6,499 nt of DNA, taken from a virus. Lineage: Duplodnaviria > Heunggongvirae > Uroviricota > Caudoviricetes. The position numbers and the translations under genes are program-made. Below, in pieces: positions 322-4,888 of the stretch; position 1 is the stretch's first letter, and every line of letters begins with the position of its first letter. The notes beneath the pieces are model-generated. The model did no database searches, was not told the origin of the DNA, and was given only the letters and a program-made list of their open reading frames with translations. The stretch is from IMG/VR virus record IMGVR_UViG_2713896779_000013; one strand, 5' to 3'.

Positions 322-531
322 TTACGGTGCTGTTTTAAGTCCTGCCGGGATTTCGTTATTGTCCATGCGAATAACTTTATCAACCGGATAACAGTTGCCG
401 GGAATTTTCTGTTCCGCTGCGGCAGCCATGCATTCTTTCATTGAGTCATGTATACCAATAACAAGATCGACTGGCTCGCCTGTATTAAGAAAAACCGTCA
501 GAACGAGTGCAAATACTGTATTCATTGTCAT
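322..531 (-). CDS. small hypothetical protein (~69 aa) with N-terminal hydrophobic segment
   Basis: The supplied ORF is 322..579, but the ATG at 531..529 overlaps the TGA stop of the upstream gene (ATGA coupling), and an alternative ATG at 525..523 has AAGGA about 8 nt upstream. Translation MTMNTVFALVLTVFLNTGEPVDLVIGIH... starts with a 16-residue hydrophobic stretch (signal or membrane anchor). No family recognised. Confidence 0.45.
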   Translation of the reverse strand: MTMNTVFALVLTVFLNTGEPVDLVIGIHDSMKECMAAAAEQKIPGNCYPVDKVIRMDNNEIPAGLKTAP

Positions 532-710
532 CGTCCTTTTTGCATCAGGCGTAAACGGGCCAGCATTGAAACAATGCATATTTGATTTAATAGCTCCCGT
601 TCGTGTTTTCTCTTATTAATGGCATCTTCAGTAAATACAGGGTTACTGATTCTGACACCAATTTCAAAACAACCTTCAGACGTATTGACGTTTGGTAATA
701 ACGTTTCCAT
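528..710 (-). CDS. small hypothetical protein (~60 aa)
   Basis: Internal ATG (710..708) of supplied ORF 528..806, preceded by GAGGA with a 7-nt spacer; stop TGA 530..528. Translation METLLPNVNTSEGCFEIGVRISNPVFTEDAINKRKHERELLNQICIVSMLARLRLMQKGR. The longer upstream extension has no RBS. No family recognised. Confidence 0.45.
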   Translation of the reverse strand: METLLPNVNTSEGCFEIGVRISNPVFTEDAINKRKHERELLNQICIVSMLARLRLMQKGR

Positions 711-727
711 TATCGCATCCTCAACAA

Positions 728-889
728 TGAATTTTGTGATGCGGTGCCTGGTGCCTCCAGGTGACGTTAACCAGTTAATAATTAACGCCGGATACAGAGA
801 ACCCACCCATAAGAACCAATACGGAAGTCAACTGGCCTTTTTAACTGTTCCGCGTGCGCTGAGCCGCATTCACCGCATCACAAAATTCA
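728..889. repeat. pair of perfect 19-bp inverted repeats (728-746 TGAATTTTGTGATGCGGTG; 871-889 CACCGCATCACAAAATTCA) flanking a 124-bp spacer
   Basis: Exact reverse-complement match read directly from the sequence. The left copy lies 18-36 nt upstream of the 528..710 gene start; the spacer contains short palindromes (CCTGG..CCAGG, GTTAAC). Confidence 0.8.
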
Positions 890-893
890 CTTT

Positions 894-939
894 AAAAAGG
901 GCGGGTATCACAAGGGAAAACAAAAAACGGATACCCGCC
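894..939 (-). terminator. hairpin followed by T-run on the minus strand (possible intrinsic terminator for leftward transcription)
   Basis: 10-bp perfect stem GGCGGGTATC (900-909) / GATACCCGCC (930-939). On the minus strand the stem is followed by CTTTTT (plus-strand A-run 894-898). The 20-nt loop is unusually long for an intrinsic terminator, hence low confidence. Confidence 0.35.
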
Positions 940-1286
940 AAAAGGTAATCAACATGGGTTGTTGCAGCGGGGTTGTCACTTAAGCGTATGGTCAACCTGA
1001 CAACCCGGTGTCCTCAACGGGGAAGGAATAACCCCGCCATACTTACCGCCGCGCCATTTCGCGGATTGCCACAACCGGAAGCGCACAGACGAAGATGTCA
1101 GTGGTACACAACAAAGGGAGGAATGACTTCGCCGTGCGCTTTCGCGTTATGCCCTGACTTTTCAGGGATATATCCTTTCAGTAAACTGTTTGTGCCGGAT
1201 TCTTATCCGTGTCCGGCGCACGACCATGCGCTGTCACGTGTGGTCTCCATTCTCAACCAGTAACCTCAATGGAGGATAAAATTAAA

Positions 1287-1586
1287 ATGGTCAGCAAACT
1301 AAATCAGACTCGCTGGAAGATTCATTATGAAACAGCGCGTTTAAATTATATTCTTGAATGTTTTGGGGATAACCTTGCTGCTGAGGAAGGCTATCCAAAC
1401 CATGTCGATGGTTTCGAAGCGATATATCTTTATCTATCCCGTAAACATGGATGGACTATTTCACAGTGTCGTTTAATGCCACTGGATGATATTCGCCTTG
1501 CTCTTTCGTTAGAGCTATCAGGGTGGCGACTCCCTGATGATGCAAAGATTGACGACCATCATTCTCACGATGATATAAGTTGTTAA
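1287..1586 (+). CDS. hypothetical protein (~99 aa), rightward and convergent with the leftward operon
   Basis: ATG 1287 with GGAGG at 1271-1275 (spacer 11 nt); an in-frame ATG at 1269 has no RBS. Stop TAA 1584-1586. Translation MVSKLNQTRWKIHYETARLNYILECFGDNLAAEEGYPNHVDGFEAIYLYLSRKHGWTISQCRLMPLDDIRLALSLELSGWRLPDDAKIDDHHSHDDISC. Overlaps the 3' end of the minus-strand gene 1456..1845 by 131 nt, so one of the two may be shorter or spurious. Confidence 0.5.
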   Translation: MVSKLNQTRWKIHYETARLNYILECFGDNLAAEEGYPNHVDGFEAIYLYLSRKHGWTISQCRLMPLDDIRLALSLELSGWRLPDDAKIDDHHSHDDISC

Positions 1587-1856: not shown

Positions 1857-2087
1857 TCAGTCAGTGTTTCTGGCTAACCAGCGATGCGCGCCAGTTTCGG
1901 TTTTAAACGTTTTGCTTTTGGTATACGTTATCGCGGTGAACGTACCGTCCTGGTTGGGAAACACGCCGCATACCAGAGATTCACTGTTGCCAAGATCGAT
2001 AGTATCCATGTTGACCTCATTTCCCCTTAACGCCGGGGGAGCGGAACAAAAACCTGCTGCATAGTTAAAGTTGAACCCTGCCGTCAT
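1857..2087 (-). CDS. hypothetical protein (~76 aa), first gene downstream of the pL-like promoter
   Basis: ATG 2087..2085 with GAGG about 9 nt upstream; alternative internal ATG 2009..2007 with GAGG 5 nt upstream would give about 50 aa. No arginine-rich N-terminus, so not an N-type antiterminator. No family recognised. Confidence 0.45.
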   Translation of the reverse strand: MTAGFNFNYAAGFCSAPPALRGNEVNMDTIDLGNSESLVCGVFPNQDGTFTAITYTKSKTFKTETGAHRWLARNTD

Positions 2088-2186: not shown

Positions 2187-2215
2187 ACTATAGGTAATGC
2201 CTAATTGATTGTCAA
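2187..2215 (-). promoter_or_regulatory. pL-like sigma70 promoter for leftward early transcription
   Basis: On the minus strand: -35 TTGACA (plus coords 2210-2215), 17-nt spacer, -10 TATAGT (plus coords 2187-2192). Embedded in the ATTAGGC-type operator repeats. Confidence 0.5.
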
Positions 2216-2324: not shown

Positions 2325-2801
2325 TTAAGTTCCAGTTTTTGTGATGTTCTGGCTTTTCCGTTCAGATTCTAGAGCTTTCAGATACTTACCCACTTTCATT
2401 TCCATCGCTGCTATGTAGGCGCGAACATCGTGGTCAACCCAATCTGGTTCTGTAGCATTTCCAGATAACAGGAAAGCTACAATCGCTCTTATTTCATCAG
2501 AGGCTGCTTGATAAAGGTTGTTTATATCTAAAAGTTCACTTTTTGTATCTGAATTGGTGGGGGTTGGTATGGGGTATTCGTTAAGCCCCCAATGCTCTGG
2601 ACCAACAACATCAGAAAAGAAACGCCATAATTCTGGAAGTTTATCTTTACTTATAGAGCCTTTCTTAATCCAGTCATAAATTGATGGTGGTTGGACTTTG
2701 AAGTGGCGTGCGACCTCCGCCTTTGATTTGACGGATCCCGATGCGATTTTTTTGTTAATGGCCTGCTCTATCGCTCGGCCTAAGTCTTTACCACTAAGCA
2801 T
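2325..2801 (-). CDS. racR: prophage repressor, XRE-family HTH (RacR-like, CI functional analogue), 158 aa
   Basis: ATG 2801..2799, 158 aa. N-terminal HTH-like segment (GSVKSKAEVARHFKVQPPSIYDWIKKG). Divergent from a cro-like gene, between two operator clusters. Length and context match E. coli K-12 Rac racR (from memory, not searched). Confidence 0.8.
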   Translation of the reverse strand: MLSGKDLGRAIEQAINKKIASGSVKSKAEVARHFKVQPPSIYDWIKKGSISKDKLPELWRFFSDVVGPEHWGLNEYPIPTPTNSDTKSELLDINNLYQAASDEIRAIVAFLLSGNATEPDWVDHDVRAYIAAMEMKVGKYLKALESERKSQNITKTGT

Positions 2802-3740: not shown

Positions 3741-4888
3741 ATGGCTAACGCCTGGCTCAGATTATGGCATGACATGCCAAATGACCCTAAGTGGCGAACA
3801 ATTGCCAGGGTGTCAGGGCAGCCAATTGCAACAGTGATGGCAGTGTATATCCACCTCCTGGTGAGCGCGTCACGAAATGTCACGCGAGGTCACATTGATG
3901 TCACGACAGAAGATTTGGCAAGTGCGCTCGACGTGACAGAAGAGGTAATTGATTCAATTTTGCAGACGATGCAGGGGCGGGTACTTGATGGTGATTTAAT
4001 CACTGGATGGGAAAAACGCCAGGTGCTGAAAGAGGACAACGGCAATATTTCGCAAACCGCAAAATCTCCGGCAGAGCGCAAGAGGGCGCAGCGAGAGAGG
4101 GAAAGAAAGCGGGAACAAAATGGCGATTGTCACGGCGAGTCACGAAATGTCACGCACATGTCACGACGAGTCACGACAGATAAAGATACAGATAAAGATA
4201 CAGATCAAGAAGATCAAAACACTATGGACCATGGCGTAAAAAACGCCACGAACCAGGCAGGGGATGTTCAGACCGTCAATCCTGGTCAGCCAGCAGGCAC
4301 GACACCGNNNNNNNNNNNNNNNNNNNNNNNNNNNNNNNNNNNNNNNNNNNNNNNNNNAAGCCGATTCAGCGTATGCGCTGAAAGCCGATTCGGGCGCTGT
4401 GCAGCAGGTGATGACCGCAAGGCAGGAGCAATCACACCAACTTCAGCAGCCTGAAGCCGATTCCGCCATTCAGCGGGAAGCCGATCGGGTAGTCCCGGAA
4501 AACACCGGTCAGTCTGTGGGACGAGTGGATTATCCGGATGTGTTCGAACAGGTCTGGCGGGAGTACCCGTTGCGTGCTGGGGCAAACCCGAAGAAATCCG
4601 CTTTCAGTGCCTGGAAGGCCAGATTACGCGAGGGGGTGCCACCAGAGGCCATGCTGGATGGCGTGAGGCGTTACGCAAGATACTTGGCGGCTACCGGGAA
4701 AACGGGAACGGAATTTGTTCAGCGAGCGACGACGTTTTTTGGACCGGACCGGAATTTTGAGAACCCCTGGTTGCTCCCGGTAAGCGGCACGAACAACCAG
4801 CGTTGTGTGAATCATATTTCTGANNNNNNNNNNNNNNNNNNNNNNNNNNNNNNNNNNNNNNNNNNNNNNNNNNCTGGTCATGAGGTAA
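3741..4888 (+). CDS. ydaU: replication initiation protein, YdaU-like (DUF1376-type N-terminus); interrupted by two N-runs, frame changes across the first gap, 3' end uncertain
   Basis: ATG 3741 with AAGAGG and a 5-nt spacer (supplied ORF starts at GTG 3735). N-terminal MANAWLRLWHDMPNDPKWRTIARVSGQPIATVMAVYIHLL resembles the YdaU/DUF1376 family. After the 4308-4357 gap the protein-like frame is a different one and stays open 4360-4821 (contains DYPDVFEQVWREYPLRAGANPKK...). Proposed end at TAA 4886-4888 is a guess; alternatives are TGA 4881-4883 or 4944. Could be two genes or a pseudogene. Confidence 0.5.
3869..3905. repeat. four GTCACG direct repeats at 10-11 bp spacing inside the replication gene (iteron-like cluster 1)
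   Basis: GTCACG at 3869, 3879, 3900 and GTCACa at 3889; includes the 16-mer TCACGAAATGTCACGC that recurs near 4141. Confidence 0.55.
4130..4220. repeat. iteron-like cluster 2 (about five GTCACG/TCACG repeats at roughly 10-bp spacing) followed by an A+T-rich tandem repeat (GATAAAGATACA x2, GATCAAGAA, GATCAAAAC)
   Basis: Read directly: ...GTCACGgcgaGTCACGaaatGTCACGcacatGTCACGacgaGTCACGacaGATAAAGATACAGATAAAGATACAGATCAAGAAGATCAAAAC. Coordinates +/-1 because of a one-base disagreement between my reading and the ORF track in this line. Iterons plus an A+T-rich segment resemble the lambda ori inside gene O. Confidence 0.5.
4308..4357. other. run of 50 N (assembly gap or masked sequence) inside the replication gene
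   Basis: Literal n characters; lies between the A+T-rich repeat and the AAGCCGATTC repeats, and the coding frame differs on either side. Confidence 0.99.
4358..4487. repeat. AAGCCGATTC direct repeats on a 24-bp period (4358, 4382, 4454, degenerate at 4478)
   Basis: Exact 10-mers at 4358-4367, 4382-4391, 4454-4463 and AAGCCGATC at 4478-4486; spacings 24, 72 (3x24) and 24. They also encode 8-residue peptide repeats (ADSAYALK / ADSGAVQQ / ADSAIQRE / ADRVVPEN), so could be a linker repeat, DNA iterons, or both. Confidence 0.5.
4824..4873. other. run of 50 N (assembly gap or masked sequence) at the 3' end of the replication gene
   Basis: Literal n characters; prevents defining the stop of the YdaU-like gene. 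Confidence 0.99.

Follow-up and report, generated by a model that had tools for sequence, protein, structure and literature searches.

A covariation-supported RNA fold in the dicBF-type untranslated spacer of an Escherichia coli O121 prophage

DicF is among the oldest known bacterial small RNAs (sRNAs), and the dicBF operon governs cell division and metabolism of the host, resistance to phages and the virulence of enterohaemorrhagic Escherichia coli (EHEC). The Qin prophage of E. coli K-12 shows the gene order ydfA-ydfB-ydfC, followed by a 340-nt gap, dicF, dicB and ydfD. The dicF gene is located in a long untranslated region (PMC5069750), and DicF has been described as an sRNA derived from the 3' untranslated region (UTR) of ydfC and as the founding example of 3'UTR-derived sRNAs (PMC9438474). 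In K-12 an internal dicF promoter is absent and read-through transcripts covering ydfABC-dicF-dicB-ydfD are made; the 5' end of a 190-nt DicF species depends on RNase III, and the 53-nt DicF depends on RNase E (PMC10448788). Here we analysed a 6,499-nt stretch of DNA from a virus of the Caudoviricetes (IMG/VR record IMGVR_UViG_2713896779_000013; the whole stretch is called the window below). Positions 950-1286 of the window are non-coding, and sequence comparison identifies them as the prophage's copy of the known dicBF-operon untranslated spacer, the DicF precursor. On the minus strand this spacer holds a conserved structured RNA of ~125 nt, which we refer to as the core.

A stretch of 451 bases around 950-1286 is 100% identical to E. 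coli O121 chromosomes, and the DNA of the window is that of a Rac/Qin-like O121 prophage. In RefSeq a gap of 746 bp between a gene for a 129-amino-acid (aa) protein and dicB, which covers 950-1286, is left unannotated. An alignment of the minus strand of 961-1222 with the K-12 Qin ydfC-dicF spacer showed ~86% identity, and the core was identical to the K-12 copy at 124 of 125 positions. As in K-12, the spacer is ~340 nt long, has small early-left open reading frames (ORFs) of the DUF1391/YdfA type on one side and dicB on the other, and belongs to the strand that is read from a promoter under the control of a DicA/RacR-type repressor. A long hairpin precedes the core and a terminator context follows it in both spacers. 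At its end the spacer of the window has an sRNA that carries a Rho-independent terminator, and the ~27-bp hairpin and A/U-rich linker of the spacer stand at the places expected from K-12 processing by the RNases III and E. The record of phage Tritos annotates DicF exactly at the position of the 900-950 hairpin of the window, with dicB and ydfD downstream. Matches to the region were found in 4,315 of 5,426 complete E. coli genomes (~80%). In contrast to K-12, the window has another sequence in place of the 53-nt DicF body, which is missed by the Rfam DicF model, a different allele at the apex of the long hairpin, a 129-aa ORF instead of ydfC upstream and an opposite-strand cargo gene next to the spacer. 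The locus as such is already known, and the window copy is a further member with a different sRNA body.

An operator-flanked leftward promoter and the minus-strand genes downstream of it (Table 1) place 950-1286 within a repressor-controlled leftward early operon, in which it is read on the minus strand. The order of this operon is pL, DUF1391 gene, 129-aa gene, spacer, sRNA, dicB, DUF1482 gene and exonuclease gene. The palindrome TTAGGC-N3-GCCTAA accounts for five operator-like sites in the window, compared with 0.22 expected, and these 15-bp palindromes are probably the operators of the RacR-type repressor. Apart from the two copies that overlap pL, three copies lie at 2830-2895, in the repressor/cro-like divergent promoter region. 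No terminator-like site was detected on the minus strand between pL and 950-1286. The hairpin at 900-939, previously called terminator-like, has a T-run on the minus strand only (UUUUU at 894-898), and hence terminates leftward transcription.

The core folds into a four-way junction with a loop-loop pseudoknot (Table 1). When it is freed of the long hairpin, its minimum free energy (MFE) structure is exactly the four-way junction. A first-pass annotation of the window, made from the sequence alone, had described 950-1286 as GC-rich and hairpin-dense and had proposed a structured RNA. The GC content is indeed 0.54 at 900-1199 compared with 0.38-0.46 on both sides, and a 401-nt stretch folded better than all shuffles (z = -3.4 for the minus strand and -4.0 for the plus strand; 0 of 100 shuffles as good). 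The three stems named at that time, gggttgtca (970-978) with tgacaaccc (998-1006), CGGGG (1018-1022) with CCCCG (1032-1036) and CCCTG (1152-1156) with CAGGG (1163-1167), are all present and turned out to be helices of a conserved fold with compensatory changes in relatives, which bears out the structured-RNA proposal.

Covariation was analysed in two alignments. A MAFFT alignment of 20 sequences, which was not fitted to any model, had 94.5% of its cells paired, compared with 31-55% with slid partners; seven pairs showed double changes, and 23 of 500 shuffles were as good. Addition of metagenomic relatives yielded 46 distinct core homologs. Aligned to the covariance model, they had 97.6% of cells paired and double-sided changes in 15 pairs (64 cells). 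Slid controls had such changes in 2-5 pairs, and none of the 500 shuffles was as good; the fit to the model inflates these covariation numbers somewhat. One variant of H3 carries four changed pairs, and the pseudoknot reads GCAUGG:CCAUGC in P1. G.U pairs at several core positions in many sequences fit the minus strand only, which identifies it as the RNA strand. The covariance model, R1, scored the core of the window with 153 bits (E = 2e-45).

Conservation was assessed as mean pairwise identity among 118 distinct sequences, with the dicB leader, which lies outside the region, as the anchor. The core (0.955) is more conserved than the sRNA body (0.909) and the flanks (0.53-0.78). Its loop and junction sequences CAGGUUGRCCAURCGC and CGGYAAGYAUGG are near-invariant from lambdoid phages to P1. 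The loop of H2 varies in length and sequence, yet always keeps a UCCU/CUCC tract that resembles an anti-Shine-Dalgarno sequence.

Homologs of the core at 77-92% identity were always found in sense orientation within an early operon. In the lambdoids cdtI, Ayreon and 2H10 they lie ~300 nt downstream of pL, and further copies are present in a Salmonella phage and in Citrobacter, Trabulsiella and Erwinia genomes. The core model detected one copy per locus and none in the rightward operon. In P1 and P7 the core follows the C1-controlled ban promoter (Pban) at a distance of ~30 nt and stands ahead of tRNAs, tci and ban. This ban-operon leader (NC_005856, 68791-68892), for which the record carries an uncharacterised 'dicF-like region' note, has the core's H1, P2a, H2, H3 and pseudoknot with 77-82% identity; it lies in sense orientation and is followed by a hairpin with a U-tract. 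In contrast to the window, the P1/P7 copy starts so close to its promoter that an RNase III hairpin is not needed, a 3' hairpin replaces the closing helix, and tRNA genes rather than dicB come next. Natural deletions of the core were observed as well, in loci L132 (1560-1760; phage phiSTEC1589-Stx1c), L156, L162, L174, L177, L180 and others. In these variants the three internal arms are gone and the closing helix is left as a small hairpin (GGUUGUGAAUAACAAC or GUUGUGGCAAUCAGCUACAAC), with sRNA, terminator and dicB leader intact.

The long interrupted hairpin upstream of the core is a probable RNase III substrate. Its base stem is present in all apex alleles, with a compensatory replacement in one type (GCGCAUUUCCG / UGGGAGUGCGC), and its 3' arm GUGCGCUUCCGGUUGUGG (~1068-1086) extends into the 5' end of the core. 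Two alternative partners exist for the strand GUUGUGG, one upstream in the long hairpin and one downstream in the closing helix of the core, so that RNase III cleavage would permit refolding. The position expected for the 5' end of the longer K-12 species, 190-53 = 137 nt upstream of DicF, falls in GUGCGCUUCC, the first bases of the K-12 core hit, and for this reason we place the presumed RNase III cut in the 3' arm of the long hairpin.

We consider it likely that the spacer is a minus-strand processing cassette of a dicBF-type early operon that ends in an sRNA. RNase III would cut the ~27-bp hairpin at 1066-1155, and the RNA downstream of the cut would refold into the ~125-nt four-way junction with its pseudoknot (956-1085), to become the body of a stable intermediate of ~180-190 nt. 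RNase E would then cut the A/U-rich single strand just 3' of the core (about 945-957) and release an Hfq-type sRNA of ~55 nt ending at the intrinsic terminator (894-939). Within this scheme the core may act as an autonomous, nuclease-resistant 'punctuation' domain, comparable to a tRNA in a polycistronic precursor, which would insulate the sRNA/terminator fold from the upstream mRNA and present the RNase E site. This processing or punctuation role is the one we favour for the core. The dependence on RNase III and RNase E and the 190- and 53-nt species come from the work of others in K-12, and it is by analogy with it that we infer the exact cleavage sites in the window and the purpose of the core. 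Among the options offered by the first-pass annotation, a processing signal for the leftward transcript fits best, the homologous K-12 spacer being processed by both enzymes.

The proposed arrangement resembles tRNA punctuation and the sRNAs that RNase E makes from 3'UTRs or within operons, in which an A/U-rich trailer cut by RNase E comes after a compact multi-helix RNA. The likeness of the core to tRNA is one of topology only, namely a four-helix junction closed by a terminal helix of 7-8 bp. The arms of the core are longer, and its tertiary contact is between the P2 internal loop and the H3 loop instead of between a D-loop and a T-loop.

Several observations weigh against this processing model. 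The strongest covariation count stems from the model-fitted alignment, and the unfitted MAFFT alignment is weaker (7 pairs; 23 of 500 shuffles). The cleavage sites in the window were carried over from K-12 by size arithmetic, and tRNA detectors do not recognise the core. About 10% of the prophages that bear the dicB leader are devoid of the core, yet keep the sRNA with its terminator and the closing helix (as a small hairpin); the core is thus not required for the sRNA to sit there. A passive precursor or scaffold, moreover, poorly explains the near-invariant loops and junctions common to lambdoids and P1, which leaves room for a specific partner or a trans-acting role.

The sRNA that the cassette would release differs from DicF. 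At the place of K-12 DicF the window has UUGAUUACCUUUUGGCGGGUAUCCGUUUUUUGUUUUCCCUUGUGAUACCCGCCCUUUUU. What this has in common with DicF is limited to the UUGGCGG at the start of the terminator stem and to the tail, and a search with the Rfam DicF model (RF00039) over 700-1300 at E <= 10 found no match. By its sequence the sRNA at 894-955 is a rare non-DicF allele in the DicF position, present in 2 of 83 anchored sequences from the IMG/VR sample; further alleles exist. As the sRNA body and the hairpin apex are both multi-allelic, they vary as cassettes around a fixed core. The same sRNA allele is also found next to the core-deleted variant L177. RNAduplex was applied to the window allele and ftsZ, a method by which even genuine DicF was not better than shuffles.

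A function of its own for the core, as an undescribed class of structured RNA, is a serious possibility that we put forward tentatively, falling somewhat short of an even chance. The core would then, for instance, act in trans or bind a factor of the host, be it RNase, RNA polymerase/Nus, ribosome or chaperone, and would belong as one cargo to a wider modular cassette system. Rfam searches with the whole window and then with 700-1300 at E <= 10 revealed no DicF, tRNA, ribozyme or riboswitch match and no family in 950-1286. ARAGORN found no tRNA in the core, and a literature search for its conserved sequence strings gave no match. The fold appears undescribed as an RNA family and has no Rfam family.

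In other phages, the same 5' motif (GUGCUCUUUCCGUUGUG) and the same 3' hairpin (AAUCACG...CGUGAU) as at the core enclose genuine tRNAs or different closed RNAs of several helices, which suggests that the core occupies a slot that holds a tRNA elsewhere. A hairpin ending in GUGCUCUUUCCGUUGUG, a closed cargo RNA (tRNA, STnc100-like RNA or core) and a next unit together look like a modular RNA-cassette system in phage early operons. A general association of the 5' motif with tRNAs was rejected, a tRNA following directly in only 2 of 126 motifs. The related motif GTGCTCTT(T/A)CCGTTG(T/C)G is widespread in IMG/VR viral contigs (loci L218-L336, e.g. L315, L290 and L279), where it pairs with an upstream CAACAGGTAAGAGCA as the 3' arm of a long hairpin and precedes various RNAs closed by GUUGUG../..CCACAAC, among them true tRNAs, STnc100-like modules and the core. 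One copy of this motif is adjoined by an isrJ match.

The structured 5' leader of dicB matched the Rfam family STnc100 (RF02076) weakly, with 33.5 bits and E = 1.4e-5, below the gathering score of 47. The two share a similar plan of a closing helix and internal hairpins; the core has no match to STnc100. The dicB leader and the core resemble each other in their 5' parts and may therefore be paralogous modules. The 5' part of the leader (GAUGCGGUGAAUGCGGCUCAGCGCACGCGG) also recurs upstream of tciA in phage P1 (L127, 3830-3968).

The put RNAs of phage HK022 suppress termination via the zinc-binding domain of the RNA polymerase beta' subunit. A put- or nut-like role of the core, as a cis-acting processive antiterminator or anti-Rho RNA, is unlikely in our view. 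Modified by the core, RNA polymerase would in this case continue past the sRNA terminator and across ~600 nt of untranslated RNA, and so reach dicB, the DUF1482 gene and the exonuclease gene. The position of the core is compatible with such a role, as it always lies in sense orientation in a repressor-controlled early operon, before an intrinsic terminator with operon genes beyond it, and K-12 does make ydfABC-dicF-dicB-ydfD read-through transcripts (PMC10448788). Core-bearing operons encode no N-like protein, and the core is precisely deleted in one N-encoding phage. However, YdfA-type genes without a recognisable N are also present at core-less loci that have the same terminator and dicB. 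A rule that the core is found only where N is absent was accordingly rejected after clustering of the upstream ORFs, the core-less loci being N-less as well and carrying YdfA-type genes.

HK022 put is likewise a cis-encoded structured RNA that lies early in repressor-controlled operons of N-less phages, before terminators (PMC9378689). It is, however, ~70 nt long, consists of two stem-loops and occurs in both the pL and the pR operon, whereas the core is ~125 nt long, forms a four-way junction with a pseudoknot, is single-copy, with no second copy in the rightward operon, and shows no sequence or model similarity to putL or putR. Identity with put was rejected, since the core model had no match in the HK022 genome and the architecture differs.

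Antitermination would be in keeping with the boxA-like 5' flank of the core, which reads UGCUCUUU in Trabulsiella and in a second element of P1 and UGCGCUUCC in the window. Compared with the boxA consensus (C/U)GCUCUU(U)A, the window reads GUGCGCUUCC and relatives read UGCUCUUUCC or UGCUCUUACC; the boxA core has G for U in E. coli-type copies, and the motif doubles as the 3' arm of the long hairpin. Its inverted complement lies ~52 nt upstream in 55 of 105 loci, compared with 0 of 105 in the control, and this weakens the boxA reading of the motif in favour of a hairpin arm. The earlier suggestion of a lambda boxB-like stem-loop at 1152-1167 was not supported: its loop would be AAAAG(U), 4-6 nt, and not a GNRA-like pentaloop on a 5-bp stem, the hairpin lies ~1 kb from the promoter, and the operon ORFs gave no N-like match in Pfam or PHROG.

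About equally unlikely is a trans-acting RNA, in which cuts by the RNases III and E would yield a fragment of ~135 nt that binds a host protein, or mRNAs via the CU-rich H2 loop. Loop and junction sequences that are near-invariant from lambdoids to P1 are what would be expected of a binding surface, the H2 loop always retains the UCCU/CUCC tract, and the core is better conserved than the adjoining sRNA. In P1, promoter, core and terminator would make a self-contained transcription unit of ~175 nt. Against this, a CU-rich loop is a weak and generic signal, and no experimental ~135-nt species has been reported, although DicF probes would miss such a fragment.

Conservation at the DNA level, or recent spread, with the core serving as a recombination-anchor 'linker' between mosaic modules and the RNA fold being incidental, has very little probability. 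Multi-allelic segments do abut the core on both sides (1093-1130 and 903-962) and homology breaks at its edges, and joints of this kind are typical of mosaic lambdoid phages. The compensatory double changes, however, preserve helices in 46 distinct sequences, including the H3 variant with its four changed pairs; G.U pairs are tolerated on one strand only, and loops of variable length lie exactly at helix tips.

Least credible of all, and in our judgement scarcely worth retaining, is that 950-1286 encodes a plus-strand protein (973-1263 or 1123-1263) or serves as leader or promoter of the gene starting at 1287. The open frames exist as described, a 96-aa ORF with a TTG start at 973-1263 and within it a 46-codon ORF from ATG 1123 to TAA 1263, and some phage records annotate the homologous stretch as 'hypothetical protein'. 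In agreement with the first-pass annotation, which had found no convincing coding frame, the 96-codon ORF has no match in Pfam or PHROG and is not conserved. The longest plus-strand ORF ranges from 53 to 111 codons across the 118 distinct homologs, and tblastn alignments of the 973-1263 product are interrupted at residues ~41-52, at a multi-allelic patch whose length varies by 1-5 nt, non-multiples of three included. Indels in the core loops of relatives are not multiples of three either, and RefSeq leaves the region unannotated. The protein reading of 973-1263, already largely refuted, was rejected for its missing Pfam/PHROG match and its unconserved frame. A scan of the plus strand for a promoter-like site found none, which speaks against a leader or promoter. 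Only ~1223-1286, about 60 nt, is a genuine conserved Shine-Dalgarno cassette for opposite-strand cargo genes; the proposed long leader of the 1287 gene is correct for this part and not for the rest of the region.

The cassette GGTCTCCATT..CTCAATGGAGGATAAAATG at 1223-1286 is found in related prophages ahead of small ORFs of at least four unrelated kinds (64, 69, 80 and 99 aa), and 1223-1586 on the plus strand is an opposite-strand 'cargo slot' with different small ORFs in different prophages. In the window the cargo ORF (1287-1586, plus strand) encodes 99 aa, is unannotated in RefSeq, has a 64% identical homolog in Cronobacter and overlaps the convergent 129-aa gene by ~130 nt. The Shine-Dalgarno sequence of the cassette can pair with an upstream CUCCAUU (CTCCATT in the DNA). 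The small-hairpin module at 1133-1222 is kept in an N-encoding phage that has no core. Elsewhere in the window, clusters of GTCACG/TCACGA repeats at ~3870-3910 and 4130-4175 (plus strand) lie within a replication-initiator-like ORF (from 3741) and are similar to the origin iterons that lambdoid O-type genes carry. Sequence is masked by three runs of 50 N, at 227-276, 4308-4357 and 4824-4873, one of them inside the replication-protein gene region.

Table 1. Features of the early-left operon and its untranslated spacer in the window. Identity is the mean pairwise identity in the sample anchored on the dicB leader.
Feature	Positions	Strand	Identity	Remarks
RacR-type repressor gene	2325-2801	-		RefSeq annotation
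Operator palindromes, 15 bp	ATAGGTAATGCCTAA 2190-2204; ATAGGCTATGCCTAA 2215-2229			overlapping pL; probable operators
pL-like sigma-70 promoter, leftward	2187-2215	-		TTGACA-17-TATAGT; 11/12 promoter match
DUF1391 gene	1857-2009	-		RefSeq; Pfam-confirmed
Hypothetical protein gene, 129 aa	1456-1845	-		RefSeq
Conserved 5'UTR and Shine-Dalgarno cassette GGTCTCCATTCTCAACC...CTCAATGGAGGATAAAAT	1223-1286	+	0.53	heads cargo ORF 1287-1586
Small-hairpin module of leftward transcript	1133-1222	-	0.78	moderately conserved
Hairpin GCCGGA/UCCGGC	1194-1217	-		
Hairpin CCCUG/CAGGG	1152-1167	-		
CGC-GAAA-GCG tetraloop hairpin	within 1133-1222	-		
Long interrupted hairpin, ~27 bp	1066-1155	-		MFE -34.9 kcal/mol
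Multi-allelic apex of long hairpin	1093-1130	-	0.68	
Core RNA, ~125 nt, four-way junction and pseudoknot	956-1085	-	0.955 (963-1085)	
Core closing helix	1068-1075 / 961-968	-		
Core H1	1060-1064 / 1049-1053	-		5-bp hairpin
Core P2a	1045-1048 / 1006-1009	-		
Core H2	1032-1036 / 1018-1022	-		CU-rich loop of variable length
Core H3	995-1005 / 971-985	-		near-invariant loop
Core pseudoknot GUAUGG : CCAUAC	1037-1042 : 986-991	-		loop-loop
sRNA with intrinsic terminator	894-955	-	0.91 (sRNA body)	alignment with K-12 Qin and phage Tritos; predicted fold
Terminator stem, 10 bp	GGCGGGUAUC 930-939 / GAUACCCGCC 900-909	-		GC-rich; U-tract 894-898
Structured dicB 5' leader	733-887	-		closing helix GAUGCGGUG / CACCGCAUC; conserved with K-12
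dicB	528-710	-		RefSeq; PF05358
DUF1482 gene	322-525	-		RefSeq; Pfam-confirmed
Exonuclease gene	beyond DUF1482 gene	-		RefSeq

The RNA upstream of DicF has so far been treated as a plain precursor. Within this precursor lies a fold with covariation support, which exceeds DicF in conservation, is present in ~80% of complete E. coli genomes and is also found in P1. It explains the recurrent unannotated gap of ~750 bp in E. coli prophages and argues against the 'hypothetical protein' calls at the homologous stretch in some phage records. The conserved core points to a missing step in the expression or processing of such prophage operons, and the swapped sRNA bodies and hairpin apices around a fixed scaffold suggest a natural system for the exchange of sRNA seeds. 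If the core is indeed a new class of RNA with its own function, that class would be common to the lambdoid prophages of most E. coli genomes and to P1-type phage-plasmids.

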